Assembly: GCA_041662745.1 (NCBI GenBank)
Contig: JBAZRV010000004.1
Coordinates: forward strand, 1 to 32,000
Direction of reading: 5' to 3'
DNA: 32,000 bases
Origin: Patescibacteria group bacterium
GTDB taxonomy: Bacteria; Patescibacteriota; Patescibacteriia; 2-01-FULL-39-33
Positions within the stretch are counted from its first letter, which is position 1; each line of letters opens with the position of its first letter. Made by a program: the position numbers and the translations under genes. Under the pieces are notes generated by a model that was given only the letters and a program-made list of their open reading frames with translations, was not told the origin of the DNA and did not search any database. Positions 278 through 16,404 of this stretch are shown in pieces.

Positions 278-385
278 AGACATCAAATCAAAAAGGAGGG
301 CTACCGCGTTCCGCTCTCCTAACCGTTAAAGAAACTCTTCGGAGCAGTCGGGTTAAGTACCACCAACTGCGGGTTTCACAAGGGT

Positions 386-415: not shown

Positions 416-564
416 TGTACTCGGGTCGGGGTCTAATTTAAAATGAGACAAATGAGACACTATAAAAAGAGGAATAATCTATGTCTCAGTTTGACAGATT
501 TAAAACTTTATAGCGTAATATTATTTAGATATTTTCAAGACAATAAATATGCGTCAGCAATACA

Positions 565-1278
565 TTAATGCTCTAAATCATAACTACTATTGAACATGCC
601 AATTTCTCCTGTTTCTGAATTCCTAACCACACTGTCTATTAATCTTGACTTGCTCTCGCCGATATAACCGTCGAGCGAATAAGATTCTAGGCGCCTTAAC
701 CCGCGTCCGGAATATTCCAAGGTTTTGAACATATACCCGATGAATGATCCGGTAAAACGATAACATCTGATGCAGCCAATTAGCCTGGCCTCCAATTCGT
801 CATTATGCCCCCGCCAGCAGAACAGCTTTGGACAATACTCCAGCCATTGGTTAACCAGGTATTTTAAAAAAATCACGAGCTGCTTTTGAGCGCTTAGATT
901 TCCCTTCTGGGCAATGCGCACCAAAACAATGCTGATTTCATCCCTTAATTTCTTATCGTCCTCGTCTAAAGCAGAAATAAAAATATATAATTTAGAGCGG
1001 TATGCATTTAGAACAACATCGAGTTCTTTTTTATTTCGATATAACTTTATTTTATGGTGGTTTTTTCTGTATGGATGCCATCGAGGCTGGAATTCCCGAC
1101 TAATGCTTCGGATCACTTTGTCCCAATCAATGCTGCCGACCTCGGTTCTGATATTCTTAAAAATAAACCGATAAACGGCCGGCGAGTTTTTCAATATCCA
1201 AGAACTGCTGAAAGTTTTAGGCTGTTGCTCTGATAGGATCAGATTTAGCGATTTTATTACCTGATTAAAATTTTTCAA
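565..1278 (-). CDS. hypothetical protein (237 aa)
   Basis: This is a clean 714-nt ORF, divergent from the 1384 gene. The C-terminal half (LIGCIRCYRFTGSFIGYMFKTLEY) faintly resembles sigma-70 region-2 helices, which is too weak to call. Confidence 0.6.
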   Translation of the reverse strand: MKNFNQVIKSLNLILSEQQPKTFSSSWILKNSPAVYRFIFKNIRTEVGSIDWDKVIRSISREFQPRWHPYRKNHHKIKLYRNKKELDVVLNAYRSKLYIFISALDEDDKKLRDEISIVLVRIAQKGNLSAQKQLVIFLKYLVNQWLEYCPKLFCWRGHNDELEARLIGCIRCYRFTGSFIGYMFKTLEYSGRGLRRLESYSLDGYIGESKSRLIDSVVRNSETGEIGMFNSSYDLEH

Positions 1279-1383
1279 TATTAAAAATAGTTTATTTATG
1301 ACATTACTTTATACCCGGAAAAGCAACAATACAAGATAGAGTCGAAACTAAACAAAATTAATCAAAAATGTTAAAATGGTGTT

Positions 1384-2235
1384 ATGGCAAAAACCACTAA
1401 AAAATCCGCTAATAAAACCAGAAGGACTATATATAATCAGGATTATTATAAGGCGCAAGCCATGGCTAAAGATCCTTGGTTTATTGAAAAAGTCAGCTGG
1501 CTAAAATCACGCTTTGCTGAAATCGGCTGCCCTATTCCAGAGGGCGGTTTTGGAAGTTATAAAGAATACATCGCCTGGAATGGCAGATTCTGGAAAAAAT
1601 TCGCTGAAATGCAAGACAGCCAGGAATTCCATGATGAGAGGACAAAGATTACCGGGGGCAAAAGCAATATATCGCGAGAAGAGTACTGGAAACTTGCTGA
1701 TTTTGAGGAAAAATTCTTGCCGCCCATATACGGCCGCCATATAAAGGAAATTCTCGCGCATTTTGGTTTTCCCGAACAGGGATACTTCCATGATTTTGTC
1801 GAATATGGAATTTTTCTTGGCAAAAAAAATTATTCTAATTCACCATTCAATGTGCAGATGATCCGTAATAAAGACACCAAGAAATGGGAACTTTTCATAC
1901 AAATTTACGGTTTTACAAAAAAAGACGACATTTCCAATAACTGGGATCTTATAGCTAATGAACAAAAATATCTTCCTGATTACTTAGGCAAGAGCAAGGA
2001 ATGGGAAACTTTTAATCGGGATTTGGAGGTCTATGATTTGTATAAAAAACTACTACCCGGCAAGGAAATAAAGAAAAAACGCAATATTGAATATGGAGAC
2101 TTCTTTTTACCGAGATCTGTTGATGCGGCTATATTCGCAAAAATTTATGAAAAATATCCAGAATTAAGCACGGAATTGATCAGAAATATCATCCATCGGA
2201 CGAAAAAACGGCTGGGCGAGTTGCCAAACGGCTAA
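1384..2235 (+). CDS. hypothetical protein (283 aa)
   Basis: An 852-nt ORF with an ATG start, followed by a hairpin terminator. I recognise no motif in it. Confidence 0.65.
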   Translation: MAKTTKKSANKTRRTIYNQDYYKAQAMAKDPWFIEKVSWLKSRFAEIGCPIPEGGFGSYKEYIAWNGRFWKKFAEMQDSQEFHDERTKITGGKSNISREEYWKLADFEEKFLPPIYGRHIKEILAHFGFPEQGYFHDFVEYGIFLGKKNYSNSPFNVQMIRNKDTKKWELFIQIYGFTKKDDISNNWDLIANEQKYLPDYLGKSKEWETFNRDLEVYDLYKKLLPGKEIKKKRNIEYGDFFLPRSVDAAIFAKIYEKYPELSTELIRNIIHRTKKRLGELPNG

Positions 2236-2270
2236 GCATATCGTTTAAAATAAACAATTGACTCTGCAAA

Positions 2271-2299
2271 AAGGCTTACAATTAATGTAGGCTTTTTTT
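2271..2299 (+). terminator. rho-independent terminator candidate
   Basis: AAGGCTTACA-ATTA-ATGTAGGCTT forms a hairpin (with G-U pairs) followed by TTTTTTT. It lies 36 nt after the stop of the 1384-2235 gene. Confidence 0.55.
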
Positions 2300-2320
2300 A
2301 ATTTGCAATAATCGAATAAT

Positions 2321-3592
2321 ATGAAAGAAAAACTCCAATGGTCAACCGCCAAAAGAAGAGTGTCCGATCTCGTTCCTTACGAAAAAAATCCTCGTAAATT
2401 AGACGAAAAACAGGCTGCAGATTTAAGCCGAAGCCTTAAAAAATTCTCTTTGGTCGAAATTCCTGCAATCAATTTAGACGGAAAAATCCTTGCTGGACAT
2501 CAAAGGGTGAAAATTATGAAGTTGCTCGGCCGAGGTGAAGAAATCATCGATGTCAGGATTCCAAATCGAAAACTGACGGAGGCCGAATACAATGAATACC
2601 TTTTAAGAAGCAACGCTAACACTGGGAGCTGGAACTACGACTTGCTCCAAAATTATAATATGGATCTGTTGCTGGACATCGGATTCGATGATACCCAACT
2701 TTCCCAGATTTGGGACGGATTGGAAATTGAGGATGACCAGTTCGATGTCGAGAAAGAAATAAAGCGAGCCAAAAAAACAAACATTAAAACCGGCGATTTA
2801 TTCCAGCTGGGAAATCATTTTCTTATCTGCGGTGACAGCCACGAGCAGAAGACATTAGACCGGCTGCTGGGAAACAAAAAAGTCGGCATGATATACAACG
2901 ATCCGATTTATAATATCGGGATCGACTATGACAATGGCATCGGCGGAAAAGCCAATTACGGCGGAAAAGTTAATGATCACAAAACCGGCAGCGAATATAA
3001 GGATTTTTTAAAACAAGGGCTGGAAAACTCCTTGCGGCATGCGGAAAAAAATTGCCACGTTTTTACCTGGAACGACCAGAACAATATTTGGTTGGTGCAG
3101 ACGCTATATAAAGAATTAGGAATAAAGAATCAGAGAGTCTGCTTTTGGGTAAAAAACGGGTTTAATCCCACCCCGAAGATCGCTTTCAATAAGGCGACGG
3201 AAAGCTGCATTTACGGTACGGTTGGCAAACCATTCCTTTCGCCGTATTCAAAAAAGCTCTGCGAAGTTCTGAATAAGGAAATAGGAACGGGCAACCGGGC
3301 CCTTGATGACATCTTAGATATTTTCGATATCTGGCTGGCAAAAAGGGACGCCGGATCAAACTATAACCACAGCACTCAAAAGCCCTTGACTCTACACGAA
3401 AAACCGCTAAAGCGTTGCACCAAGCCCGGCGATATCGTTTTAGATATTTACGGCGGATCAGGATCGACTTTGTTAAGTTGCGACCAATTGAGAAGGATCT
3501 GCTATACGTCCGAGCAAAGCAATATATTCTGCCAATTAATAATCAACCGCTATGAAACAGCCACAAACGTTAAAGCCAAAAAAATCGCCTAA
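2321..3592 (+). CDS. ParB-like nuclease domain fused to N6-adenine/N4-cytosine DNA methyltransferase
   Basis: The N-terminus (VSDLVPYEKNPRKL...ILAGHQRVKIMKLLG) is ParB/Srx-like. The C-terminal part has the beta-class MTase motif order: NDPIYN (DPPY-like motif IV), then HSTQKP, then VLDIYGGSGST (motif I). Confidence 0.85.
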   Translation: MKEKLQWSTAKRRVSDLVPYEKNPRKLDEKQAADLSRSLKKFSLVEIPAINLDGKILAGHQRVKIMKLLGRGEEIIDVRIPNRKLTEAEYNEYLLRSNANTGSWNYDLLQNYNMDLLLDIGFDDTQLSQIWDGLEIEDDQFDVEKEIKRAKKTNIKTGDLFQLGNHFLICGDSHEQKTLDRLLGNKKVGMIYNDPIYNIGIDYDNGIGGKANYGGKVNDHKTGSEYKDFLKQGLENSLRHAEKNCHVFTWNDQNNIWLVQTLYKELGIKNQRVCFWVKNGFNPTPKIAFNKATESCIYGTVGKPFLSPYSKKLCEVLNKEIGTGNRALDDILDIFDIWLAKRDAGSNYNHSTQKPLTLHEKPLKRCTKPGDIVLDIYGGSGSTLLSCDQLRRICYTSEQSNIFCQLIINRYETATNVKAKKIA

Positions 3593-3593
3593 G

Positions 3594-4325
3594 ATGGGCA
3601 CTATCTGGCAATTGGGCGAACATCGCCTCGCTTATGGCGACTGCCGCAATGCCGAATTGCTTGAGCAGCTTTTCGGCCAAGAAAAAATCAACCTTATTTG
3701 CACTGACGTGCCTTATGGCGTAGCAGCGGTGGAATCGAAAAGAAATTTTCATCGACTGTCAAAAGATAAGGAGATTGCCAATGACCATCTGCAATCGGAC
3801 ATCGAGTATCAAACTTTCACTGGGCAATGGCTGAATGCCGTTACGCCTTTTCTGGCCGTTAAGAATTCTGCCTATGTTTTCAACGCCGATAAAATGATCT
3901 GGCCGCTTAGGGAAGGATTGATTGATTCCGGATTCAAAGTCGCCCAGCTTATTATCTGGGTTAAATCGCAGGCCGTCATCGGCCGCCTGGACTACGCTCC
4001 GCAACATGAATTAATTCTGTACGGCTGGCATGGCACGCACCGCTTCCGGCACTCCAAAGACAAGTCCGTCCTTTTCTACCCGCGCCCGACTAAAAGCAGA
4101 CTCCATCCAAGTACAAAGCCAATCGGACTGATTCGCCGGCTCATTCTTAATTCCTCGGAAGTCGGCGATGCGATTTTTGACGGCTTCCTTGGATCGGGCA
4201 CTGCATTATTAGCTTGCGAGCAAACTAAGCGCCGCTGTTTTGCAGTTGAGATAGATTATGAATATTGCCTGACTGCTATCCGGCAATGGGAAAAAATGAC
4301 AGATAAATTAGCAATAAAAATATGA
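3594..4325 (+). CDS. DNA methyltransferase (N6_N4 family, beta class)
   Basis: Motifs present are TDVPYG (motif IV), HPSTKP and FDGFLGSGTALLACE (motif I). The ATG at 3594 lies directly after the upstream stop. The longest ORF starts at 3552 and would overlap the upstream gene by 41 nt. Confidence 0.85.
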   Translation: MGTIWQLGEHRLAYGDCRNAELLEQLFGQEKINLICTDVPYGVAAVESKRNFHRLSKDKEIANDHLQSDIEYQTFTGQWLNAVTPFLAVKNSAYVFNADKMIWPLREGLIDSGFKVAQLIIWVKSQAVIGRLDYAPQHELILYGWHGTHRFRHSKDKSVLFYPRPTKSRLHPSTKPIGLIRRLILNSSEVGDAIFDGFLGSGTALLACEQTKRRCFAVEIDYEYCLTAIRQWEKMTDKLAIKI

Positions 4326-4726
4326 AAGACGATCAAAAATTAAAACAGTTGGCGATCGAACAATTGGGCAAAACTCCAATCGTCCAGGTTGTTTGCGAAA
4401 AAATCGGCTTGCCTCGCTCAACTTTTTACAAATGGAAAGCTAAGGACGATAAATTTTCAGAAGCGGTCGATAAGGCTATGTTTGACGGGCGGAATTTAAT
4501 CAATGACTTTGCCGAATCACAGCTTATCAGCAATATTAAAAATAATCAGCTGACCGCAATTATCTATTGGCTTAACCATAATCACAAGAATTACGGCAAT
4601 AAACTGGAAATAAACGGCAAGTTGAAAAACGATAATGCTCCGCTGACTCCGGAACAAGAGCAAGCCATTATGAGAGTAGTGGAATTAGCTGATTCCACAA
4701 ATCAACATTTAATAAATAACCCATAA
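4322..4726 (+). CDS. putative terminase small subunit (HTH protein)
   Basis: It has an N-terminal HTH (IGLPRSTFYKWKAKDDKFSEAVDKA) and an IIYWLNHNHKNYGNK motif typical of TerS-like proteins. It overlaps the upstream stop by 4 nt and sits immediately upstream of the large terminase. Confidence 0.6.
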   Translation: MKDDQKLKQLAIEQLGKTPIVQVVCEKIGLPRSTFYKWKAKDDKFSEAVDKAMFDGRNLINDFAESQLISNIKNNQLTAIIYWLNHNHKNYGNKLEINGKLKNDNAPLTPEQEQAIMRVVELADSTNQHLINNP

Positions 4727-4730
4727 ATGT

Positions 4731-6257
4731 ATGGAAGTCCAACAAAATGAAGCTTTGGCTTCAAATGATGTTTCCTTAAGAGAAATCATCTCCAACCAAT
4801 CAATGCGAAGCGAGCTGACCCGTCAAAGCCACTGGTGGTTCTTCAATATCTACCTGAACCACTATGTCTCCTATGCAGCCGCTCCCTTCCACAAGCAAAT
4901 TTTCAGCCTAACTGATGACGAAACTATTAAAACCCTGCTTTTGGTGGCCTTCAGAGGCAGTGCCAAATCAACCATCCTGACTTTGTCTTACCCCATCTGG
5001 GCGATCTTGGGCAAGCAGCAAAAGAAGTTTGTCATTATCCTCGGCCAGACCCAAAGGCAGGCCAGGCAGCATTTGGTTAATATCAGGCGCGAACTCGAGG
5101 CCAATGAACTGTTACGGCAAGATCTCGGGCCCTTTAAGGAGATCGAAGACGAATGGGGCTCGTATTCATTGGTTATTCCTAAATACGGAGCCAGGATTAC
5201 GGCCGCCTCCATGGAGCAGACAATCAGAGGTGTGCGACATAATCAGTTCAGGCCGGACTTAATCGTCTGCGATGACATCGAAGACCTGCAAAGCGTTAAA
5301 ACCAAGGAAGGCCGGGATAAAATCCAGCAATGGATTACCGGCGAGGTTATCCCGGCCGGCGATTTGAACACCAGAATCGTCTTTGTCGGCAATTTACTGC
5401 ATGAGGATTCGCTGTTAATGCGAATCAAGGAAAAAATCATTAAAAAAGATATCGATGGCTATTTTCTGGAAATCCCCTTGATTGACAAGGACGGACAGAT
5501 TACCTGGCCGGGTAAATTCGCCAACCTGGAGGATATCGAAAAAGAAAAGAAAAAAATCGGCAATGAAATCTCCTGGCAGCGGGAATACCTGTTGCGGATT
5601 ATCTCCGACAGCGAGCGAGTCATTCATCCTGATTGGATCACCCATTACGAGAAGCTGCCGCCGTTTGACTTTGAGAAGTTTGACTTTAGGTTTACGGCTA
5701 CCGGCATTGATCTGGCTATCTCACAAAAGGACTCAGCTGATTACACAGCCATGGTTTCAGCCCATGTCTATGGCTATGAGCAGAACCTGAAAATCTACAT
5801 CGTGCCCAACCCGATCAATCAGCGGATGACGCACAGTGAAACCTTGAATACGGCCATGAACTTATCCAAATCACTGGGCGAAGGCGAAATGACACACATA
5901 TTAGTCGAAGATGTCGGCTACCAGCAATCAGTCACTCAGGAGCTGGTACGCATGGGCTATCCGGCCAAATCAGTCAAAGTCCATGGCAGCGACAAACGGT
6001 CAAGATTAGCTTTGACTAGCCATTTGATACAGAACAAAACAATCTTGTTTCCACCGCAGGGAGCTGAGCTATTGATCAGCCAACTGGTCGGCTTCGGCGT
6101 AGAGAAACATGACGACTTGGCCGATGCCTTTTCGCTGCTGATTAACAAAATTATCAGCATGAATCATAAGGAGCAGGGCGTAGGATTGTGGGTGCTGACT
6201 GAAGACGGCTGGAGCGGCGGCCGCTACAGAACCAGGGGCAAGGAATTTGAGGATTAA
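4731..6257 (+). CDS. terL: terminase large subunit
   Basis: Walker A-like AFRGSAKST and Walker B LIVCDDIED are present. The C-terminal nuclease-type region includes GVEKHDDLADAF. Its size (508 aa) and position after the TerS-like gene fit. Confidence 0.85.
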   Translation: MEVQQNEALASNDVSLREIISNQSMRSELTRQSHWWFFNIYLNHYVSYAAAPFHKQIFSLTDDETIKTLLLVAFRGSAKSTILTLSYPIWAILGKQQKKFVIILGQTQRQARQHLVNIRRELEANELLRQDLGPFKEIEDEWGSYSLVIPKYGARITAASMEQTIRGVRHNQFRPDLIVCDDIEDLQSVKTKEGRDKIQQWITGEVIPAGDLNTRIVFVGNLLHEDSLLMRIKEKIIKKDIDGYFLEIPLIDKDGQITWPGKFANLEDIEKEKKKIGNEISWQREYLLRIISDSERVIHPDWITHYEKLPPFDFEKFDFRFTATGIDLAISQKDSADYTAMVSAHVYGYEQNLKIYIVPNPINQRMTHSETLNTAMNLSKSLGEGEMTHILVEDVGYQQSVTQELVRMGYPAKSVKVHGSDKRSRLALTSHLIQNKTILFPPQGAELLISQLVGFGVEKHDDLADAFSLLINKIISMNHKEQGVGLWVLTEDGWSGGRYRTRGKEFED

Positions 6258-6411
6258 TTAACTGATATTAATGAAATGAACGCTGATCATATTTAATTGC
6301 AATTATTGATATTTTGTTGTAATTTAATACAAATAGCATAAAATTATTATCAAAAAACTCTAATTTTAGATAAAATTTACATTTTCCTCAATAACTATCG
6401 ATTTTCAGCTC

Positions 6412-6440
6412 TTGACAAAATTTTGACGATATGCTATAAT
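6412..6440 (+). promoter_or_regulatory. consensus sigma70 promoter TTGACA-17-TATAAT with extended -10 (TGC)
   Basis: TTGACA sits at 6412-6417, then exactly 17 nt, then TGCTATAAT at 6432-6440. It lies in a very AT-rich intergenic region upstream of DGR target gene 1. Confidence 0.7.
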
Positions 6441-6479
6441 TACCTATTAAAATAGTTCATTAAAGCAGTGTAAATTAAT

Positions 6480-6534
6480 ATGAGGCGAGCGCTTTGCAGG
6501 CCATAAATAATGGTTTTCAGAGCGCTCGCCTCAT
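6480..6534 (+). promoter_or_regulatory. conserved 5'-leader stem-loop of DGR target gene 1
   Basis: A 14-bp perfect stem ATGAGGCGAGCGCT/AGCGCTCGCCTCAT encloses an inner CCAT/ATGG helix. It is followed by CATTCCGGGGCAAAAG. A homologous element precedes target gene 2. Confidence 0.5.
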
Positions 6535-6606
6535 TCCGGGGCAAAAGCCGCCAGTCCGAGCGATTCGGGCAAGTCAGCAGTACCAATCAAGAAAGGAAGG
6601 TATGCC

Positions 6607-7380
6607 ATGGGTAATCCCACGGTGAGCCGTACCCTGTCGGTACACAAGGAACACGAAGTATTATTGAAACTGGAAGCCGCCGGCCTCGATGACGATCTGG
6701 CCCAAAAAGTCATTGACTCCAAAGACAACGACTTGGCCATGAAAGTCATCCGGCTGATTCAGAACGGCGGATTCGAAGCGACCACGAGCCAGAAACGCGC
6801 CCGCGAAATCATGGGCACGAACATGTTCGGCGTCGAGGAAGCTATCCTCCATTTCGGCGTCAATCCCAGCAAAGCGCAACTGGCCGCTCTCTCCGAGATT
6901 CCGTTCTCCGAGGCGGTACTCGCTCAATGCAAAGACACGCACGTTTTGGTGGCAATCTTCCCGCTGTCCATCCTGGAGATCCGCGGCAAGGTAAAGCGCG
7001 GTCTGTTCTACAGCTACGAGGACTCCTGGTATAACAAACAGTCGTTCGCGAAAGACCGCGGCGAAGTGGGTTGGCAACTCGTGCGCAAAACGCCGGTTGA
7101 CAACTCAACGGCGAAGAACTGGACGGAACAGCAAGCGTTGCTGGGCAAGGAAGACGAGACGCCGACCGCCCAGGTTCTGGCCTACACCATCATCGGGCAT
7201 TTCCTGGCCACAGGCGAACGGCTGTTCGAAAAGATCTACGTCCGTACGTCCACTGTGGTTTTGGTCGGCGGCCGCGTCCACCTCGGCTTCTTCGATGCTG
7301 CCGGCCTCGGGGTCTACGGCCGCTGGGCTGACGATCGCCATGGCGCTCTGGCCGTCTCCTCCGCCCGGAAGTCCAACTGA
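6607..7380 (+). CDS. DGR target (variable) protein 1, 257 aa
   Basis: An RBS AAGGAAGG sits upstream. It is paralogous to 7684-8463, sharing MGTNMFGVEEA...GWQLVRKTPV...TPTAQVLAYTIIGHFLATGERLFE. The C-terminal 40 aa are encoded by VR1. No signal peptide or TM segment is evident. Confidence 0.85.
   Translation: MGNPTVSRTLSVHKEHEVLLKLEAAGLDDDLAQKVIDSKDNDLAMKVIRLIQNGGFEATTSQKRAREIMGTNMFGVEEAILHFGVNPSKAQLAALSEIPFSEAVLAQCKDTHVLVAIFPLSILEIRGKVKRGLFYSYEDSWYNKQSFAKDRGEVGWQLVRKTPVDNSTAKNWTEQQALLGKEDETPTAQVLAYTIIGHFLATGERLFEKIYVRTSTVVLVGGRVHLGFFDAAGLGVYGRWADDRHGALAVSSARKSN
7247..7368 (+). repeat. DGR variable region VR1
   Basis: This 122 bp aligns with TR 8829-8950. By hand alignment there are about 25 differences, 23 of them at TR adenines. 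The last 21 nt (CTGGCCGTCTCCTCCGCCCGG) are identical and free of A. Confidence 0.85.
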
Positions 7381-7393
7381 ACCTTGAATCTTT

Positions 7394-7456
7394 GAGGGCT
7401 TGACCCTCTTGATTCCTTGAGCCTTCGGCGCGAATTTTTTTCGTCGCCGAAGGCTC
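7394..7456 (+). promoter_or_regulatory. post-VR hairpin pair (possible DGR target-recognition structure and/or terminator)
   Basis: Hairpin 1 is GAGGG-CTTGA-CCCTC (7394-7408). Hairpin 2 is the 12-bp stem GAGCCTTCGGCG/CGCCGAAGGCTC (7419-7456). The same pair follows VR2. Confidence 0.5.
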
Positions 7457-7540
7457 ACTTCTTTCCTACTATAACCATTGATAGTTTAATAATATTAGTA
7501 ATTGTCCCTTAAAATAAATGTGATAAAAAAATAGATTGAA

Positions 7541-7586
7541 ATGAGCGTTTTGGATGCCAAAGAATTTTGGTTTCTAAAACGCTCGT
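7541..7586 (+). promoter_or_regulatory. conserved 5'-leader stem-loop of DGR target gene 2
   Basis: Stem ATGAGCGTTTT/AAAACGCTCGT encloses an inner CCAAA/TTTGG helix. It is followed by CTCATTCCGAGACAAGAC and preceded by an extended -10-like TGTGATAAA (7519-7527). Confidence 0.45.
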
Positions 7587-7683
7587 CTCATTCCGAGACA
7601 AGACGTAACAACGGGATCGTATTCCCATTTCTAGTCGCCCCAAACAAAAAAAACAAGGGGCTAACAGAAAAGGAGCACATACC

Positions 7684-8463
7684 ATGAAGTGGACAGAAAT
7701 CCTTGCAGGAGAATTGCATGCAGCCGAGCAACGCCTCAGGGTCGCCTTGGGCGACAAGGCCAGCGAAGTTGTCGAGAAAATCAACAGCGATGCCGCTTTT
7801 GCGGACTCGGTCGCCGCGCAAATCATTATGATGGCGGGCGAGGCTGACAAAAGTTCCACCAGCTTGAACCCGCAATGGTTGCGCGCCCGCGAAATCATGG
7901 GCACGAATATGTTCGGCGTCGAAGAAGCCATGAAGCATTTCGGCGTCAATCCCAGCAAAGCACAGCTCGCCGCTCTCGCCGAGATTCCCTTCTCGGAGGC
8001 AGTGCTCGAACAGTGCAAGAACACGCATGTCCTGGTTGCGGTCTTTCCGCTGTCGATTCTCGACATCCGGAGCAAGGCCAATGTCAAGAAGCTGTTCTAC
8101 GACCAGTCGTGGTACAATGGCGAGTCCTTCGCCAAAAGCCGCGGCAAGATCGGCTGGCAACTCGTGCGCAAAACGCCGGTTAGCAACTCAACGTCAAAGA
8201 ATTGGAGCGAACAGCAAGCTCTGATCAGTCAAGACGATGAAACGCCGACCGCCCAGGTTCTGGCCTACACCATCATCGGGCATTTCCTGGCCACGGGTGA
8301 ACGGCTGTTCGAACGCATTTACGTCCGTACATCGTCTGTGGGTTCGGGCGGCAGCCGCGTCCCCCTCGGCGACTTCGCTGCTGCCGGCCTCCGGGTCTAC
8401 GGCAGCTGGGATGACCATCGCGATGGCGATCTGGCCGTCTCCTCCGCCCGGAAGTCCAACTGA
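7684..8463 (+). CDS. DGR target (variable) protein 2, 259 aa
   Basis: An RBS AAAGGAG sits upstream. It is a paralog of 6607-7380 with a divergent N-terminal ~75 aa. The C-terminus is encoded by VR2. Confidence 0.85.
   Translation: MKWTEILAGELHAAEQRLRVALGDKASEVVEKINSDAAFADSVAAQIIMMAGEADKSSTSLNPQWLRAREIMGTNMFGVEEAMKHFGVNPSKAQLAALAEIPFSEAVLEQCKNTHVLVAVFPLSILDIRSKANVKKLFYDQSWYNGESFAKSRGKIGWQLVRKTPVSNSTSKNWSEQQALISQDDETPTAQVLAYTIIGHFLATGERLFERIYVRTSSVGSGGSRVPLGDFAAAGLRVYGSWDDHRDGDLAVSSARKSN
8330..8451 (+). repeat. DGR variable region VR2
   Basis: This 122 bp aligns with TR 8829-8950. By hand alignment there are about 21 differences, 20 of them at TR adenines. It shares the identical A-free 3' 21-mer. 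Confidence 0.85.
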
Positions 8464-8476
8464 ACCTTGAATCTTT

Positions 8477-8540
8477 GAGGGCTTGACCCTCTTGATTCCT
8501 TGAGCCTTCGGCGCGAATTTTTTCGCAATGCCGGAGGCTT
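8477..8540 (+). promoter_or_regulatory. post-VR hairpin pair, copy 2
   Basis: GAGGG-CTTGA-CCCTC lies at 8477-8491. GAGCCTTCGGC.../GCCGGAGGCTT lies at 8502-8540 and is followed by a T-rich run. Confidence 0.5.
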
Positions 8541-8542
8541 AT

Positions 8543-8571
8543 TTTCTTTTTAAACTATTTTTTGCTATAAT
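8543..8571 (+). promoter_or_regulatory. candidate promoter for the TR-containing RNA (weak -35, extended -10 TGCTATAAT)
   Basis: TGCTATAAT at 8563-8571 is the same extended -10 as in the other two promoters. The -35 is only TTTCTT. A second candidate, TGTGATAAA, lies at 8674-8682. Confidence 0.35.
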
Positions 8572-8828
8572 TATTTTGTTCGCTAATGCAGGCGCGGTTA
8601 CGGCTTCGCCTCGCGGACAGCTCATCTTTTTGAGACGTCACCAGAGTATCGCCGTCCACGGATTGCGATAGCGTGTGATAAAAAGATTGAGATGGAACTT
8701 CTTGCCCGCTCTTAGTGGAGGTGATCTTACGCTATCTGCTCCCGAATAAAATACAGGAGAGAAAGGACATAGGCCTGTTTTTTAATAGGCAGTAAACCTT
8801 AATTTCCAGTGATCCTGGCGAGAGCTGG

Positions 8829-8950
8829 CAAATAATGTGGATTCGGACGGCAACCGCGTCAACCTCGGCAACTTCGATGCTACCGGCCTCAAGGTCAACA
8901 ACAACTGGGATGACAATCGCAATGGCGATCTGGCCGTCTCCTCCGCCCGG
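8829..8950 (+). repeat. DGR template repeat (TR), non-coding
   Basis: It is adenine-rich (30 A by my count) and has six AAC and two AAT codons in the VR reading frame. Both VRs differ from it almost only at A positions. There is no plausible start or RBS, and homology to the VRs ends exactly at CGCCCGG (8950). Confidence 0.85.
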
Positions 8951-8971
8951 CACTTCCATCTTTTCTTACTA

Positions 8972-9000
8972 AAACACCCTCCTGTTACAGGAGGGTGTTT
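8972..9000. terminator. strong bidirectional hairpin between TR and avd
   Basis: AAACACCCTCCTG-TTA-CAGGAGGGTGTTT forms a 13-bp stem. T-rich flanks lie on both strands. It sits 22 nt after the TR and 15 nt after the avd stop. Confidence 0.6.
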
Positions 9001-9014
9001 CCATTTATTATGGC

Positions 9015-9365
9015 CTACAATTCCTTAGTTGACTTAATCCAGCCGCCGAGCATTCGGCCGACTTCATCGACATCCTGTTGCAATGTCACGTACTTATTAG
9101 CCGCTAAGGATTTAGTTTCTTTCATCAGCCGCAAGAATATCCTGAGGAAATTCAGCTTTAAGCTGGCTTTTTGCAAAACCGGCAGCTTGTCTGTTTTGGA
9201 CAGCTGGCTGGCCAGCAATATGCTTTCCAAAATATCCAACAGGACATTTTCACAGCGCTGCCACAAAGTGTAGCGGTCTTGCTTAGCCACGCTTTTCCTG
9301 AGGATATAAAATTGCTTGTAGAGATCATAGATTTTTTTAAAGATCGGTATGTCAAAATCTTCCAT
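9015..9365 (-). CDS. avd: Avd-like accessory variability determinant (four-helix-bundle / 23S rRNA-IVS protein family), 116 aa
   Basis: From the ATG at 9365 it reads MEDFDIPIFKKIYDLY...LNFLRIFLRL...DVDEVGRMLGGWIKSTKEL. The C-terminal LRF-LR...EVGRMLGGWI closely parallels Bordetella phage Avd (LRFWLRF...EVGRILGSWI). Confidence 0.75.
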   Translation of the reverse strand: MEDFDIPIFKKIYDLYKQFYILRKSVAKQDRYTLWQRCENVLLDILESILLASQLSKTDKLPVLQKASLKLNFLRIFLRLMKETKSLAANKYVTLQQDVDEVGRMLGGWIKSTKEL

Positions 9366-9401
9366 ATAATTATGAAAATTTATAAAGATATTTATAATGA
9401 G

Positions 9402-9512
9402 ATGATTTCCCTGGAGAATTTGTTTTCCGCCTGGGATAAGTTCAAGATTGGCAATTTTTGCTGGAGTTGGATTTTCCTGATCAATGCTATAATAATTATT
9501 ATATGCGATTAA
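9402..9512 (+). pseudogene. reverse transcriptase 5' remnant (first ~16 codons only)
   Basis: The ATG at 9402 gives MISLENLFSAWDKFKIG, which matches the conserved RT N-terminal pattern I-x-x-ENL-x-x-A-x-x-K-x-x-x-GK. Resemblance is then lost and a stop occurs at 9510-9512. No RT motifs occur downstream in any frame. Confidence 0.5.
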
Positions 9513-9662
9513 AACTAAACGCCCATCATCACCCCTTAATATTTTTAAAAGACCCAACTCTTGGTCAAGAATAATCTGACCTACAAGATTAAATTCAGTT
9601 ATTTCGAATGATACAAATTCATCCATATAATTATAATTAATACCTGTATTGAATATTACCAA

Positions 9663-9685
9663 AAAATCGCCATTTAGGCGATTTT
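9663..9685. terminator. bidirectional hairpin terminator candidate
   Basis: AAAATCGCC-ATTTA-GGCGATTTT carries A/T runs on both sides. It lies downstream of the minus-strand XRE/378-aa operon. Confidence 0.4.
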
Positions 9686-9774
9686 ATTTAGCTAACAAAA
9701 TAATATACATATACTATTTGAGTCGCCCCACCATCATAGGACGGTGAGTCGGCTCCGATACTTAGTTCTACTAC

Positions 9775-9875
9775 CGGTGTGTTTACAAAAAAATTCGAAC
9801 CGATTTCACCCCCAAAAATTGATGAGCGGGCGGATTTCCTCCCCCAACCCCTCCATCCGCCCGCCCTTTCGGATT
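9775..9875. repeat. 101-bp inverted repeat, left copy (X)
   Basis: It is the perfect reverse complement of 11388-11488, checked base by base. It contains the 10-bp stem GCGGGCGGAT/ATCCGCCCGC (9826-9835 / 9855-9864) around a 19-nt C-rich loop, plus a TTCGAACCG motif. Confidence 0.9.
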
Positions 9876-9883
9876 TGCGATTT

Positions 9884-11020
9884 TCAGTTTTTCTTTGGCG
9901 ACAAATTCTTTTTTTCTAGCATTCTTACCACCTTAAAATCCGTAGTGATTATTGGAATATTACTTGGTATGACATCTAATATTTCTTGTGGTATCTGCTC
10001 AATATCTTTGTTGATAACAACCGCTACAAAATCTTTCGGTGATATATTACCAATTACTCCCATATCACCCTCACTATTTTCTAATGGCCCTAGAGTATGA
10101 TGTTTGTTTGGGACTTTAAATAAAATTGATAAATCATCCCAAAAGTATTTTTTCATCTCACCGGTTTGTTCATAATCGCTTTTTACTAACTCTGGTGGAT
10201 AGGTTGAAATCATGTTGGTTCCAAAAAGTAAATCCGCCATATTCCTAAAGGGGTCATCATATATTTCGAAATCCTCTTTATTTTTAGGCTCCCATCGGCT
10301 TCTCCAATTTTCCTTTTTCAAACGTTCAAATGCAAACTTAGCTAGAGGTGAACTAAAAAAATATGTCTTTATAGACTGATACACCTTATCAGTTGTTTCT
10401 TTTTTTCTTTCATCTCTTATTTCTGGCGTAACCAATAACCAGTCTTGAGCGTAATCTTCTTGTATCGTTTCAATCAAGATATTTGAAAATTCATCGCTGT
10501 TTACCATTTCGTCGTAACTTATGCTATCTAAATTAGCTCCATCGTGAACCCTTTTGTCTAAAAAGATCGACATTGCGCGAATCATCGATTTGCCAAGCTT
10601 TCCCCGCTCATGTTGTACTTCTGGACCATAGCCACCAATAGGAAAATTAACAGCATAACCCTCTTTTTGTAATCGAATTTTCCGATGGCTCAAAATTCCT
10701 TGCCCAAAATAACTTTTTAATTTATTTAAAAGTTCCTCTATTCGCACAATATCTTTTTCATTACGATCTTCAGGCGCTGCATTCAACATCTTAATTAGTC
10801 CTCCTACGAATCTATAGCCACTGTGCTGAGCAACCTTCCTATCGGAAATTAATTGTTTAATTTCTTCAATTAATATTCTCTCATTTTCTTCTCTTTCATT
10901 ATTATTTAAATCAGGACTTTCTCCGCTCATTAGCCCATCAAAACCCGCCTCATTTTCAGTTGGATACTCAAGGCCTTGAATAAAATCTTCTTCTTGTTTT
11001 GGTTGCTCGAGTTTTGGCAT
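9884..11020 (-). CDS. hypothetical protein (378 aa), co-operonic with XRE regulator
   Basis: This 1137-nt ORF starts 5 nt after the XRE stop. It has an acidic N-terminus and no TM segment. I recognise no catalytic motif, and specifically no RT YxDD or HExxH. Confidence 0.7.
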   Translation of the reverse strand: MPKLEQPKQEEDFIQGLEYPTENEAGFDGLMSGESPDLNNNEREENERILIEEIKQLISDRKVAQHSGYRFVGGLIKMLNAAPEDRNEKDIVRIEELLNKLKSYFGQGILSHRKIRLQKEGYAVNFPIGGYGPEVQHERGKLGKSMIRAMSIFLDKRVHDGANLDSISYDEMVNSDEFSNILIETIQEDYAQDWLLVTPEIRDERKKETTDKVYQSIKTYFFSSPLAKFAFERLKKENWRSRWEPKNKEDFEIYDDPFRNMADLLFGTNMISTYPPELVKSDYEQTGEMKKYFWDDLSILFKVPNKHHTLGPLENSEGDMGVIGNISPKDFVAVVINKDIEQIPQEILDVIPSNIPIITTDFKVVRMLEKKNLSPKKN

Positions 11021-11025
11021 ATTTG

Positions 11026-11238
11026 TTATTTTATTAAATCATCAACCGTAACCCCTAACCCTTTGGCAATTTTTGCCATAGTTTCAATCGTGGGATTGGG
11101 CGTAGCCCCCGATTCAATTTTAATTATTACATTATAAGCAATATCAGCCCTTTTCGAAAGTCCATCTTGAGAAATACCTAGTTTATCTCGGCATTTTTTA
11201 ATATTCCTGGCTATTGTTGGCAATTCACTTTGTTTCAT
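11026..11238 (-). CDS. XRE-family helix-turn-helix transcriptional regulator (70 aa)
   Basis: IKKCRDKLGISQDGLSKRADIAYNVIIKIESGATPNPTIETMAKIAKGLGVTVDDL is a canonical HTH_3 sequence. TATAAT lies 6 nt upstream of the ATG, so the mRNA may be leaderless. Confidence 0.9.
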   Translation of the reverse strand: MKQSELPTIARNIKKCRDKLGISQDGLSKRADIAYNVIIKIESGATPNPTIETMAKIAKGLGVTVDDLIK

Positions 11239-11337
11239 AGTATAATTATACTAGTATAGTAGTTAAACAAGTTTTACTACTATAACTTTATCAAAATTCA
11301 TGGATTTTATCAATAATTTTTTTAAGCCCGCTTTTGG

Positions 11338-11387: not shown

Positions 11388-11488
11388 AATCCGAAAGGGC
11401 GGGCGGATGGAGGGGTTGGGGGAGGAAATCCGCCCGCTCATCAATTTTTGGGGGTGAAATCGGTTCGAATTTTTTTGTAAACACACCG
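11388..11488. repeat. 101-bp inverted repeat, right copy (X')
   Basis: It is the perfect reverse complement of 9775-9875. Confidence 0.9.
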
Positions 11489-11572
11489 CCAATCGGTATT
11501 TGCCCAATTTTCGGGCAGAAGTTTCAGAATTCGCCAACCAGTTTTGGCCTGAAATTCAAATTTTTTGGCTTC
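11486..11572. repeat. 87-bp inverted copy (A) of recombinase 3' end plus the tRNA-Ser 3' terminus
   Basis: It is the perfect reverse complement of 12997-13083, checked base by base. It begins with CCGCCA, the 3' end of tRNA-Ser(GCT). Confidence 0.9.
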
Positions 11573-11634
11573 TGATTCTTAAAGAATTGCCAAAAGCGGG
11601 CTTTAAAAAAATTATTAGTTTTAATCTTAAATAT

Positions 11635-13137
11635 ATGAAGTACTTTATTTACGCTCGCAAGTCCACTGACAGCGAAGAACGGCAGATCTTAAGCATTGAA
11701 TCCCAGATTGCTGAGTTGTATGAATTTGCCGCCAAAGAAAAACTGGAAATCGCCGCTTCGCTGTGCGAAGCGAAAACCGCCAAAGAACCTGGCCGAACTG
11801 TGTTCGGAGAAATGCTGGATCGGATTTGCGCCGGCGAAGCCGGAGGAATTTTGGCTTGGCACCCGGATCGGCTGGCTAGAAATTCAATTGACGGAGGCAA
11901 AATCATTTATCTTTTGGACACAGGCCAGATCAAAGACCTAAAGTTTCCCACATTTTGGTTTGACAGCACACCGCAAGGAAAATTCATGATGAACATTGCC
12001 TTTGGCCAAAGCAAGTATTACATCGACAATTTAAGCGAGAATATACGGCGAGGCCATCGGGCTAAACTAAGAAAAGGGATTTGGCCAGTCTTTGCCCCGC
12101 TTGGCTATCTAAATAATCACAGGACCAAAGGCATAGAATTAGACAGGGAAAGGGCGCCTTTGGTCAAAAAATGCTTTGAGCTATACGCTACGGGCGAATA
12201 TACCCTCAAAGCCCTAAGAGATGTAATCAGCCAAGCGGGGCTAAGAAGCTACCGAGGCAATGTTCTGGCCGTGGCCTGTGTCCAAAGAATGCTCAAGAAC
12301 TCGATCTACTATGGCCTATTCAAATTTAACGACGAATTGCATGAGGGAACGCACGAGCCGATTATTTCCAAGAAACTTTTTGATGAAGCTCAACAAGTAA
12401 TGAGTAATCGAGGCAAGAAGAAACGAAAGCGAAAACACGAATTTGCTTTTTCTGGATTAATGAAATGTGGGGTCTGCGATTGCCTCATAACGGCGGAAAA
12501 ACAAAAAGGCCATAATTACTATCGTTGCACCAAGAAAAAACAAACCTGCGACGAAAAATGTCTGCGCGAAGAATTACTTGTTGAACAGATGAAAGAGATA
12601 ATTCAAAAAGTTTCTTTGCCTGACGATTGGGCAAAAAATATGCTCGCCGAGATTGAGTTGGAACGAGAACAAGCAAGAAAAGACGGCATGATTTTTGGGC
12701 AAAAACTGGAAGTGAGAAAAACAGAAATCGAGCAAACCATGGAACGACTGCTTGATTTGTTTATTGAAGGCAAGCATATCGAGCCAGAGGAATATCACGC
12801 TAAAAAACAAAAACTTCTCATCGAGAAGTGTGAGCTTAATCAACAAATCAAGGATTTTGCCCAAAAAGGAAATAATTGGCTCGAACCCATGAAAGAAATG
12901 ATTTTAGCCAGCAGCCAAGCCAAAATTCTATTGTCGCGAGGCGACAATTCGCAAATCCGAGCATTTCTAAAAAATATCGGCTCGAACTTCATTTTGGAAG
13001 CCAAAAAATTTGAATTTCAGGCCAAAACTGGTTGGCGAATTCTGAAACTTCTGCCCGAAAATTGGGCAAATACCGATTGGCGGAGAGAGAGGGATTCGAA
13101 CCCTCGGTACGCCCATAATAGACGTACAACGGTTTAG
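11635..13137 (+). CDS. large serine recombinase (integrase/invertase type), ~500 aa
   Basis: The N-terminus MKYFIYARKSTDSEERQ carries the catalytic Ser motif, followed by HPDRLARN. A recombinase domain is followed by a Cys-rich zinc ribbon (CGVCDC...YYRCTKKKQTC) and a coiled-coil region. The ORF track start at 11500 is a non-ATG extension through repeat A. The last ~20 codons read antisense through the tRNA (ERDSNPR). Confidence 0.9.
   Translation: MKYFIYARKSTDSEERQILSIESQIAELYEFAAKEKLEIAASLCEAKTAKEPGRTVFGEMLDRICAGEAGGILAWHPDRLARNSIDGGKIIYLLDTGQIKDLKFPTFWFDSTPQGKFMMNIAFGQSKYYIDNLSENIRRGHRAKLRKGIWPVFAPLGYLNNHRTKGIELDRERAPLVKKCFELYATGEYTLKALRDVISQAGLRSYRGNVLAVACVQRMLKNSIYYGLFKFNDELHEGTHEPIISKKLFDEAQQVMSNRGKKKRKRKHEFAFSGLMKCGVCDCLITAEKQKGHNYYRCTKKKQTCDEKCLREELLVEQMKEIIQKVSLPDDWAKNMLAEIELEREQARKDGMIFGQKLEVRKTEIEQTMERLLDLFIEGKHIEPEEYHAKKQKLLIEKCELNQQIKDFAQKGNNWLEPMKEMILASSQAKILLSRGDNSQIRAFLKNIGSNFILEAKKFEFQAKTGWRILKLLPENWANTDWRRERDSNPRYAHNRRTTV
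12969..13083. repeat. B'-A' segment: native contiguous copy of repeats B and A
   Basis: 12969-12997 pairs with 11338-11366, and 12997-13083 pairs with 11486-11572. The segment lies inside the recombinase 3' coding region and overlaps the tRNA by 6 nt. Confidence 0.9.
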
Positions 13138-13172
13138 CAAACCGCCGCCTTCAGCCACTCGGCCATCTCTCC
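13078..13172 (-). tRNA. tRNA-Ser (anticodon GCT), CCA encoded
   Basis: The reverse complement reads GGAGAGATGGCCGAGTGGCTGAAGGCGGCGGTTTGCTAAACCGTTGTACGTCTATTATGGGCGTACCGAGGGTTCGAATCCCTCTCTCTCCGCCA. It has acceptor GGAGAGA/TCTCTCC, anticodon loop TTGCTAA, a long variable arm, and T-arm GAGGG-TTCGAAT-CCCTC. Confidence 0.9.
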
Positions 13173-13231: not shown

Positions 13232-13891
13232 CTACGCAGCTAAGACAAAACCGCTAATTTCAGCAAATCCTGCGGTTTTTAATGTGTCGGCGCATTCACG
13301 TAAGGTTGAGCCGGTAGTCAAAACATCATCAACTAAGATTATCCTTTTACCCCAGTTATCGCTTAAACAATCCAAATTGACTTGAAATGCCCCAATTACA
13401 TTCTGCTCCCTGTTTTCTTGCGTCTGGCCGACTTGCGGCTTATGATAAACGACTCGCCGAAGCAAATCCGGACAAACCAATAAAGAAGAATTGGTAGCGG
13501 CTAAAGCCCTGGCGATTACTTCCGCCTGATTGAACCCCCGCCAGAGATACCGACGGCGATGCAAAGGCACCGGGACCAAAACGGCCGGAAGATCATCTGT
13601 TTGTACTGATATTTTTTCTTTCTTTATTAACTGATGAACAGTGCGGGACAAGTCAAAGGCAAAATTATATTTTAAAGCGGCAATAATCCTGTCAATAAGC
13701 GGCTGTTCATAATCAAATAAAGCCTTAACCTTGATAAAATTAGCGCCAACAGGCAGAATCAATTGCCTTTCCCTGCTTGGCAATGTTGCTAAGCATTTTT
13801 CACACAGCCACTCACCTTCCTGATGGCAATTCAAACAATAACGCGGGAACAGCAAGTCAACGATTTGCTCTTTAAAACCGCTTATTGCCAT
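13232..13891 (-). CDS. comF: ComF-family protein (phosphoribosyltransferase domain, ComFC-like)
   Basis: The N-terminal zinc-finger-like region has CLNCHQEGEWLCEKC. The C-terminal PRTase motif is ILVDDVLTTGSTLRECADTLKTAG. The start overlaps the upstream gene by 10 nt. Confidence 0.9.
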   Translation of the reverse strand: MAISGFKEQIVDLLFPRYCLNCHQEGEWLCEKCLATLPSRERQLILPVGANFIKVKALFDYEQPLIDRIIAALKYNFAFDLSRTVHQLIKKEKISVQTDDLPAVLVPVPLHRRRYLWRGFNQAEVIARALAATNSSLLVCPDLLRRVVYHKPQVGQTQENREQNVIGAFQVNLDCLSDNWGKRIILVDDVLTTGSTLRECADTLKTAGFAEISGFVLAA

Positions 13892-14451
13892 TTAGCTTGG
13901 TTTACCAACCATTCCGTGCCCGATTTGATGAAATTAAGCTGTAAATTACGATAATAAACATTAGGCGTAATGCCATCGCCGCTGGTCTGTGAAACTTGAG
14001 TTTTCACTACTACCGTCGCCGAGTCTGTTTTGACGCTTTGCAAATCGGCAGAAAGCGCCTTAACCGAGTAACCGGAAAAACCGGCAGCGCCGATAACCGG
14101 AGATTGAGCTAAAGACGCCTTATACATTGTCGGGGTCATTAACGATTCCAAATCCTTGATATTCTTTTGCGGTTCATCAGTGGAATAACTGCCATAACGT
14201 TCGGCAAAAGACATGGCTAACTGCTTTAGTCCGATAGGATATTGGTTTTCCTGCTCCAATCGCTCCGGTGGCGTAGCCGGCAGACCGAAGGCGGCGGCGT
14301 TACCGCTCGTTTCTACCTGCGGCGTAGATCCGGGCTGTTGATTTACCGGCGTTTTTTGCGGTCTGAAGACTAACCACAAAACTATAATTAATGCTACCGC
14401 TATGGCAACAGCCAAAATAATTAACACTACTCGTCGTCGATCTTCAAACAT
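13882..14451 (-). CDS. bitopic membrane protein (189 aa), possible VirB8/TcpC-like T4SS subunit
   Basis: It has a single N-terminal TM helix (VVLIILAVAIAVALIIVLWLVF) and a ~150-aa beta-rich C-terminal domain ending YYRNLQLNFIKSGTEWLVNQAKWQ, which has an NTF2-like feel. The function is inferred from context only. Confidence 0.6.
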   Translation of the reverse strand: MFEDRRRVVLIILAVAIAVALIIVLWLVFRPQKTPVNQQPGSTPQVETSGNAAAFGLPATPPERLEQENQYPIGLKQLAMSFAERYGSYSTDEPQKNIKDLESLMTPTMYKASLAQSPVIGAAGFSGYSVKALSADLQSVKTDSATVVVKTQVSQTSGDGITPNVYYRNLQLNFIKSGTEWLVNQAKWQ

Positions 14452-14495
14452 ATGGAAAATTAGATTATTTTATCTATAATAATAATTGAATATCG

Positions 14496-16400: not shown

Positions 16401-16404
16401 AAAG

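Follow-up and report, generated by a model that had tools for sequence, protein, structure and literature searches.

A diversity-generating retroelement cassette with a truncated reverse transcriptase gene in a Patescibacteria contig

We analysed a window of 32 kb (positions 1 to 32,000) from the 137-kb contig JBAZRV010000004.1 of a Patescibacteria group bacterium; window-wide results below cover those 32 kb. The window very probably holds a diversity-generating retroelement (DGR) cassette of a Patescibacteria-specific kind, which has kept its cis parts intact while its own reverse transcriptase (RT) has been destroyed, leaving it non-autonomous, with variable repeats (VRs) that are either frozen or rewritten from elsewhere. 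This reading is carried by a non-coding template repeat (TR) that differs from two VRs almost exclusively at its adenines, by an intact Avd gene beside it and by an RT gene that stops matching its relatives after 27 codons. The main components, including open reading frames (ORFs) and a 21-mer resembling an initiation of mutagenic homing (IMH) site, are as follows.

8829–8950, + strand: TR, non-coding, ending in the IMH-like 21-mer at 8930–8950
7247–7368, + strand: VR1, at the 3' end of target gene 1, with the IMH-like 21-mer at 7348–7368
8330–8451, + strand: VR2, at the 3' end of target gene 2, with the IMH-like 21-mer at 8431–8451
6607–7380, + strand: DGR target gene 1 (ORF of 257 aa, WC668_03235)
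7684–8463, + strand: DGR target gene 2 (ORF of 259 aa, WC668_03240), a paralogue with a different N-terminus
9015–9365, − strand: Avd accessory gene, intact (116 aa; PF22296, NF033474)
9372–9454, + strand: remnant of the DGR RT, codons 1–27 (MKIYKDIYNEMISLENLFSAWDKFKIG), located by tblastn with intact RTs
9455–11300, no strand assigned: unrelated segment in place of the remaining RT, with an ORF start at 9627/9662 (−), a 378-aa ORF and a helix-turn-helix (HTH) gene

Template and variable repeats

The TR (30 A, 39 C, 31 G and 22 T) was compared without gaps to each VR, and the mismatches were tabulated by TR base and evaluated with Fisher's exact tests. VR1 differs at 25 positions, 23 of which are TR adenines (A>G 10, A>C 7, A>T 6; p = 1.3e-16), and VR2 at 21 positions, 20 of which are TR adenines (p = 1.4e-14); across the VRs, TR adenines are replaced by G, C and T. 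The original prediction, an earlier reading of this DNA, had proposed this adenine-specific substitution with the same counts, and all of its figures on the TR/VR comparison were reproduced exactly. It had also named an even spread of substitutions over the TR bases as the outcome that would speak against a DGR; this was tested and not seen (p ~1e-16 and ~1e-14). As it had further claimed, the two VRs differ mutually at TR-A positions, which make up 15 of the 17 sites that distinguish them.

The 5' edge of the TR is soft: positions 8829–8835 are A-rich, and T8833 is mismatched in every VR examined, including those of a relative described below (L090), so that firm TR/VR homology is counted from 8836. 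Within this core (8836–8950), VR1 shows 19 mismatches at A and 1 at another base, and VR2 shows 16 and 0. The sole non-A difference in the core is thus C8844>T in VR1, with T8833 as a further mismatch at the boundary. All but one of the TR adenines (29/30) occupy codon position 1 or 2 of the VR frame, in which the TR translates as ANNVDSDGNRVNLGNFDATGLKVNNNWDDNRNGDLAVSSAR. At the other end, the A-free 21-mer CTGGCCGTCTCCTCCGCCCGG has three exact copies in the window (at 7348, 8431 and 8930, against 0 expected), and TR/VR homology in the ungapped comparison ends directly after it, in keeping with the anchor that had been predicted. In both targets, 12 nt of the ORF follow the VR, which amount to three sense codons plus the stop codon.

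The last ~280 nt of the two target loci (7163–7440 versus 8246–8523) are almost identical except in the VR. The flanks 7163–7246 and 7369–7440 differ from their paralogous counterparts at 1/84 and 0/72 sites, respectively, 7369–7440 being 100% identical to 8452–8523. The gene bodies of the paralogues show 58–88% identity in 50-column blocks, with 36 synonymous codon differences over 142 codons. Near-identical flanks around VRs that differ at 17 sites indicate that the 3' parts were homogenised recently and that both VRs were rewritten afterwards. The pattern suggests recent gene conversion of the target 3' ends, including the hairpin region that lies beyond the TR homology. Each VR was rewritten on its own, and at a time that is recent when set against the age of the paralogues.

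Ordinary repeats could in principle drift apart through duplication, gene conversion or a mutation process with a general A/T bias, and repeats do exist here, with homogenisation in the 3' parts of both genes. We nevertheless regard such an origin, without any DGR, as extremely improbable, since the mismatches are limited to one copy, the non-coding one, and there to the adenines of a single strand (p ~1e-14 to 1e-16), a curated Avd gene adjoins it, the start of an RT gene remains, and the same layout with an intact RT is found in dozens of species.

The gene at 9015–9365, which had been called Avd-like, scores above the curated cut-offs of both Pfam (PF22296 bAvd, 64.6 bits, cut-off 40) and NCBIfam (NF033474 DivGenRetAVD, 82.6 bits, cut-off 80). 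The NCBI annotation of the source metagenome-assembled genome (MAG; locus tags WC668_03235/03240) already names it as a DGR Avd. Avd and RT are divergent, with start codons 6 nt apart, and Avd is convergent with the TR. The locus shows the features by which DGRs are recognised apart from the RT: an A-specific TR/VR pair, a VR at the target 3' end, an IMH-like anchor, predicted post-VR hairpins and Avd. The Avd frame also stays open upstream, across the antisense of the RT remnant and into the foreign segment, forming a 215-aa ORF at 9015–9662 (−) with an ATG at 9627 (MDEFVSFEI...); judged from the frame, Avd may be made as a fusion with an N-terminal extension. The Avd start region has a 21-nt near-repeat at 9614–9634.

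The truncated reverse transcriptase and possible supply in trans

The remnant MKIYKDIYNEMISLENLFSAWDKFKIG is 88–93% identical to intact relatives over residues 1–25/27 (tblastn), and nothing further matches. At the DNA level, homology to related loci (numbered L001–L090 here; L002–L006, L088 and L089 in this comparison) extends from 8460 to 9445–9454 and then ends; an intact allele would run on into ...GGCAAAAGGCGGAGAGCGGATGTG... No YxDD box occurs in any of the six frames of the window, and tblastn with intact RTs across it found no RT beyond codons 1–27. The cassette thus lacks a DGR-type RT (RVT_1, [IL]GxxxSQ motif, YxDD box), for which the full gene of the relatives carries GIPIGNLTSQ and YTDD. 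Because its RT is reduced to codons 1–27 and no other RT is present in the 32 kb, the cassette is non-autonomous. The claim that the locus bears the hallmark of mutagenic retrohoming therefore holds for past retrohoming and for all the cis features that had been named, but the cassette cannot carry it out alone now, its RT being cut after codon 27. The original prediction ended at 9512; the ORF at that edge contains only the first 27 RT codons, and the truncation had been overlooked.

The segment that takes the place of the RT (9455–11300) resembles neither RT nor any of the 90 related loci, apart from its HTH gene, which has one weak match in L010 (35% identity). Two genes lie within it.

9884–11020, − strand: 378-aa ORF, with no family match except a weak one to PADLOC HerA (E = 7.7e-4, 16.4 bits)
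11026–11238, − strand: HTH gene (HTH_3, E = 8e-14)

A simple inversion of the cassette was considered and rejected; it predicts an RT remnant between TerL and target 1, and none is there. No att-like or repeat sequence marks the junction, in that neither a copy of the integrase-flanking repeat nor tRNA sequence was found near 9454. A search of JGI metagenome contigs for an exact 31-mer taken from the RT 5' end returned nothing, and the contigs found to encode the proteins are short, with breaks inside or close to the TR or else at the leader hairpin.

Close relatives bear on whether an RT could come from elsewhere. L089 (ENA ERZ27249449 contig k141_416786) and L088 (JGI and NCBI MAG WCT26, Candidatus Buchananbacteria) are 100% identical to the window over the TR and terminator (8778–9014, 237 nt; TR 122/122), and both carry an intact 349-aa RT beside purA and other chromosomal genes. 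L001, a contig from the same sample as L089, is identical to window positions 1–8918, and its end overlaps the start of L089 by exactly 141 nt, the assembler's k, so the two meet at one node of the assembly graph. L090, from another sample, encodes the window's exact Avd protein, an identical TR (122/122) and two targets. Its VRs and those of the window differ at 31 sites, 29 of which are TR-A sites. The two Avd genes differ by 10 nt (2.8%) in 9 codons, all changed synonymously, and the Avd of L089 differs from that of the window by 27 nt (7.7%; 92.3% identity), with 20 synonymous and 3 non-synonymous codons. These sequence comparisons suggest that the lineage is actively diversifying, and they indicate that Avd and TR are under continued constraint and that a compatible RT is present in the same community.

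In a survey of the family, 79 species-representative loci were fetched, 81 non-redundant loci were classed and 90 related loci were fetched in all. Among the 81, the RT is full-length in 31 and divided between two reading frames in 8; 3 retain a C-terminal RT remnant only (L012, L013 and L028) and 18 are without RT, Avd and TR within 2.5 kb (L020, L021, L024, L025, L032, L042, L055, L057, L058, L065, L066, L069, L073, L075, L079, L080, L081 and L087). Loci without machinery keep the target gene, often together with its leader hairpin; with the machinery lost in 21/60 assessable loci, its loss with retention of the target is common in this family.

Several of these observations weigh against the proposed reading. 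The window contains no RT, a defining DGR component, and the frequency of machinery loss favours plain decay. This assembly is the only one to cover the junction at 9454, as L001 ends inside the TR. L088 is binned in MAG WCT26 and the window in WC668, so the intact RT may belong to a different cell. The RT of L090 is also truncated, 10–11 nt further in and with a different right flank. Lastly, the two assemblies covering the VRs give the same sequence for them.

The single coverage of the junction raises the question of whether the truncation is an assembly artefact, the locus really continuing into an intact RT and the 137-kb contig being a chimera or strain mosaic joined near 9454. The ERZ27249449 contig that matches the window's left side does end in the TR and overlaps, by k = 141, a contig reaching the intact RT, and that sample yielded no protein identical to the window's Avd. 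Yet the junction shows no repeat by which a de Bruijn assembler could have been misled, and the 27 nt separating the window's Avd from that of L089 mark the right side as a distinct haplotype and not a mis-join within L089. Moreover, a second sample has the window haplotype too (L090), and there as well the RT is truncated. We consider an artefact improbable.

If the truncation is real, the cassette could be a young fossil: its RT would have disappeared recently and the cell would contain no compatible one, leaving VR1 and VR2 as frozen traces of past retrohoming with the same decay ahead of them as the many orphan targets of the family. The absence of RT motifs from the window, the loci of the survey with no machinery or only an RT remnant, the identity of the VRs in both covering assemblies and the separate binning of the intact-RT relative all fit this history, which we regard as a serious possibility. 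Set against it are the Avd gene, TR and structured leader, none of which shows decay (the TR is unchanged in L089 and L090, and the Avd changes are almost all synonymous), and the VRs, whose only non-A differences are the one in the core and the boundary mismatch. Undecayed components together with nearly pure adenine changes imply either a very recent RT loss or continued use.

Continued use would be explained if a sister DGR with the same TR, of the L089/L088 type, supplied RT and Avd in trans, making the island's own RT dispensable. L089 is well placed for this role, given its identical TR and terminator, its intact RT, its origin in the same sample as L001 and the 141-nt contig overlap. 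The window and L090, both with truncated RTs, share an Avd under purifying selection while their VRs have diverged at TR-A sites, and two RT/Avd pairs stand in one locus in some relatives (L010 and L037). On the other side, the intact RT may sit in a different cell, the differing junctions of the window and L090 mean that the truncations may be independent and recent with all diversification earlier, and the last 46 nt of L090 could be a contig-end artefact. We hold service in trans to be a plausible account in its own right; that the cassette is frozen and that it is rewritten by an RT–Avd pair encoded elsewhere appear about equally likely. The more specific proposal that the RT-less island cassette is a satellite of a chromosomal master DGR with the same TR (L089/L088 type), still rewritten in trans, is tentative and on present evidence rather unlikely.

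If the satellite proposal were true, DGR targets on a mobile methylase–terminase–integrase island would plug into an RT made elsewhere, and RT supply in this family, which belongs to the candidate phyla radiation (CPR), would be turned on and off at the genetic level through loss, through sharing and, among relatives, through (GA)n or poly-G tracts within the RT gene. The locus offers a clean natural dissection, with cis elements and Avd under constraint, the RT gone and an identical-template sister with an intact RT in the community. Through it, servicing of DGR cassettes in trans becomes testable.

RNA structures, target proteins and the island

The target genes and the TR are accompanied by a series of promoter-like and structured elements.

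6412–6440, + strand: promoter-like site of target gene 1 (TTGACA-17-TATAAT with TG), a putative promoter with a 12/12 consensus match
6480–6534, + strand: long hairpin in the 5' leader of target 1 (ATGAGGCGAGCG...CGCTCGCCTCAT), inverted repeat I2, −21.7 kcal/mol, z = −7.0 (DNA fold)
7534–7593, + strand: long hairpin in the 5' leader of target 2, inverted repeat I1, −18.4 kcal/mol, z = −5.9
7386–7455, + strand: two hairpins 3' of VR1 (a GAGGG/CCCTC stem-loop, then a 14-bp terminator-like stem), −25.4 kcal/mol, z = −8.5 (DNA fold)
8469–8539, + strand: two hairpins 3' of VR2, −21.0 kcal/mol, z = −5.5 (DNA fold)
8563–8571, + strand: extended −10-like box TGCTATAAT, a putative promoter element read from the sequence and conserved in 31 loci
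8579–8831, + strand: structured non-coding leader of the TR RNA (10 helices; RNAalifold, 31 species-level loci)
8972–9000, + strand: perfect hairpin of 14 bp separating the TR from the convergent Avd gene, inverted repeat I11, fold z = −8.1, terminator-like in a terminator scan

The leader hairpin (ATGAGRCGAGYR...YRCTCGTCTCAT) lies 40–90 nt upstream of the start codon in at least 29/59 related target genes and also precedes orphan targets without a DGR; its G-T pairs fit the sense RNA only. Downstream of VR2, the block 8452–8510 is conserved in 31 related loci, and the box TGCTATAAT that follows likely marks the start of the TR transcript, judging by its sequence and position.

The leader between this box and the TR is supported by covariation. 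In the RNAalifold model of 31 species-level loci, 48 of 66 pairs show compensatory changes, and 96.3% of cells are paired compared with 43–48% in slid-partner controls. The covariation score is 0.484 (controls 0.11–0.14), and the observed values were reached in 0/500 shuffles. The window copy fits this covarying family structure, in which a long-range helix (8702–8713 with 8820–8831) closes at the 5' edge of the TR. Rfam holds no family for the TR leader or the hairpins.

Mutagenic retrohoming, with steps taken by analogy from the Bordetella phage BPP-1 system, would explain the VR pattern. A non-coding RNA would be transcribed from ~8575 to the hairpin at 8972–9000, comprising a ~250-nt structured leader and the 122-nt TR. 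An RT–Avd complex would copy the TR to cDNA, misincorporating opposite template adenines, and the cDNA would then replace the homologous 3' ends (VR1 and VR2) of the tandem paralogous genes. Homing would be anchored by the A-free 21-mer common to TR and VRs and by the hairpins just 3' of each VR.

Targets 1 and 2 share 67% amino-acid identity and have unrelated N-termini of ~60 residues. Their family counts more than 1,167 homologues, all from Patescibacteria, all annotated as hypothetical and none with a Pfam domain, and in the family alignment hypervariability is limited to the last ~40 residues. Variants of target 2 from other samples, within its 90% cluster, differ mainly at VR codons. Searches with the target protein gave no meaningful match in Pfam (all 28 members, E <= 10), PHROGs, NCBIfam, PADLOC or PDB profiles, and a scan of target and TerL against IMG/VR found no relatives.

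A first AlphaFold model of the target, built from 28 close homologues, was unusable (predicted local distance difference test score, pLDDT, 43.7). Addition of a divergent subfamily raised the pLDDT to 88.2, with a predicted template modelling score of 0.81. In this model, a helical N-terminal part precedes an alpha/beta C-terminal domain, the last beta strands of which carry the VR. The weak Foldseek matches are nearly all to EgtB, SenA, FGE, C-type-lectin and DUF1566 structures, which suggests that the modelled target carries the usual DGR scaffold (C-type-lectin/FGE-like); with best E-values of only 0.06–0.2, the fold assignment is not established. The target genes have a GC content of 55–62%, compared with 37–46% for RT and Avd, a consistent contrast that does not depend on how GC-rich the surrounding locus is (38–52%; window 6607–8463 versus 9015–9454; L002, L033, L004 and L089).

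Upstream of the cassette lie two N6/N4 methylases, TerS and TerL (PHROG 38, E = 1e-79), the last of which bears out the terminase context that had been described; downstream are the HTH gene, a large serine recombinase and a tRNA-Ser. The original prediction had singled out two diversified targets in a terminase island as notable. Both are real, but they are less notable than claimed, because both are common in this DGR family: two or three tandem targets recur in L076, L033, L030, L035, L052, L059 and L037, and the methylase–TerS–TerL–integrase module recurs as well, L033 having the window's order with an intact RT.

In the window, this module of methylase(s), TerS, TerL and serine integrase (2321–6257 with 11500–13137) shows no capsid or portal gene. 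It accompanies this DGR family also in L002, L033, L046, L059, L067, L070, L074, L075 and L086, with the DGR in either orientation. These associations suggest that the module is a small terminase-bearing integrative island and a DGR vehicle in CPR bacteria, possibly satellite-like.

A perfect 87-bp inverted repeat (11486–11572 and 12997–13083) brackets the large serine recombinase gene. Its right arm overlaps the 3' end of tRNA-Ser(gct) (13078–13172, −), and a degenerate tRNA-like stretch comes after the left copy. The integrase of L002 (5678–7273) is likewise flanked by long inverted repeats and adjoins a tRNA-Arg gene. The 87-bp repeats may delimit an invertible integrase segment or reflect duplication of an att site.

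Further along, positions 13232–32000 encode a ComF-like phosphoribosyltransferase, a VirB4/TraG-like ATPase (E = 3.5e-30), a PrgI-like protein and unannotated ORFs of 470 and 1080 aa. A 3063-aa ORF reaching the window end has weak CBM_4_9 and Endotoxin_C matches. This region is a type-IV-secretion-like or surface-protein cluster outside the island.

Related loci and comparison with known systems

The canonical order in the surveyed family is target(+), TR, Avd(−) and RT(+), with an RT of ~349 aa. In ~40 species-level loci, the TR lies in the same 115-nt register, with 5–26 A mismatches and mostly 0–2 non-A mismatches. Some relatives carry a second RT, namely a divergent RT/Avd pair in L010 (1791–3192; 36% and 29% identity) and a partial RT in L037 (1564–2145); genomes with more than one DGR RT thus exist in the group.

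A further feature of relatives, not found in the window, is a (GA)8–15 or G10 tract in the loop before the GIPIGNLTSQ motif, present in 8 of ~39 full-length RT genes of the survey. Their positions are given here.

L004, 12202–12244
L018, ~8211
L023, ~8225
L050, ~4480
L052, 4069–4131
L085, 8040–8082
L083 and L034 also carry a tract

The proteins concerned are P0130, P0132, P0139, P0142, P0194, P0202, P0216 and P0341. In 6/8 tract-bearing RTs the reading frame shifts precisely where the tract lies, and in 4/4 tested the full RT ORF is regained when a single GA unit is added or removed. Among the 120 best database homologues, 7 have an in-frame (ER)3–6 at the tract position, and one 90% RT cluster combines 357-aa proteins with a 190-aa ORF, the N-terminus of which comes from reading the same gene in the shifted frame. 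Loci with a split RT still have cleanly A-specific VR/TR pairs. L004, L005 and L006 have identical repeat lengths and give no direct evidence of length variation. By their sequence, the tracts look like a phase-variable on/off switch of hypermutation in these relatives; no paper on a phase-variable DGR RT was found in the literature searched.

A DGR in a CPR bacterium is expected, since CPR bacteria are known to be rich in DGRs; the first survey of CPR DGRs is reportedly that of Paul et al. (Nat Microbiol, 2017). The kind of DGR described here is known and its Avd was already annotated, and the window copy is a new, degenerate member. It was the set of related loci that brought out the more unusual features, namely the structured leader of the TR, the hairpin in the target leaders, the link to the island and the RT repeat tracts of relatives. 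The ~250-nt TR leader, the target leader hairpin, the methylase–terminase–integrase link and the RT repeat tracts were not located in the CPR DGR literature searched.

DGRs of clade 2 are CPR-restricted and cell-encoded, with targets that lack a transmembrane segment or a recognisable domain (Roux et al. 2021; PMC8144416). The window agrees with them in its Patescibacteria host, its cell-encoded setting, its target without transmembrane segment or known domain and its A-specific TR/VR pairs. The window's relatives encode a 349-aa RVT_1 RT and bAvd, and the RTs of close relatives all come from Patescibacteria MAGs. Unlike clade 2 members, the window retains 27 RT codons, which makes an RT-based clade assignment impossible for this copy.

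The targets resemble C-type-lectin-fold proteins such as Mtd, TvpA and archaeal AvpA (PMC5006420, PMC6328139) in that the VR forms the C-terminal ~40 residues and the modelled beta strands end an alpha/beta domain. They differ from these in an extra N-terminal helical region and in having no sequence-level match in Pfam, PHROGs or PDB.

The prototype is the BPP-1 DGR (mtd-avd-TR-brt). In contrast to it, the window has an Avd convergent with the TR and divergent from the RT, a 21-mer identical in TR and VR without IMH/IMH* differences, and two small-protein targets without a clear phage-tail context, and it has no RT. Its TR would also lie in an RNA of its own, preceded by a large structured 5' domain and followed by only ~60 nt, unlike the avd-TR-spacer transcript of BPP-1. 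The likenesses are extensive: adenine mutagenesis from TR to a VR at the target 3' end, the presence of Avd, a GC-rich A-free segment common to TR and VR at the end of homology, and hairpins just 3' of the VR. In BPP-1, the IMH and a downstream hairpin/cruciform define the target, and both are required (PMC3240598). RNA segments flank the TR in both systems, and in BPP-1 they are needed for cDNA synthesis, according to a preprint (bioRxiv 10.1101/2023.10.23.563531). The TR leader domain is probably the family equivalent of the BPP-1 flanking segments. The covarying RNA domain 5' of the TR, the target leader hairpin and the RT repeat tracts could guide the reconstitution of CPR DGRs.

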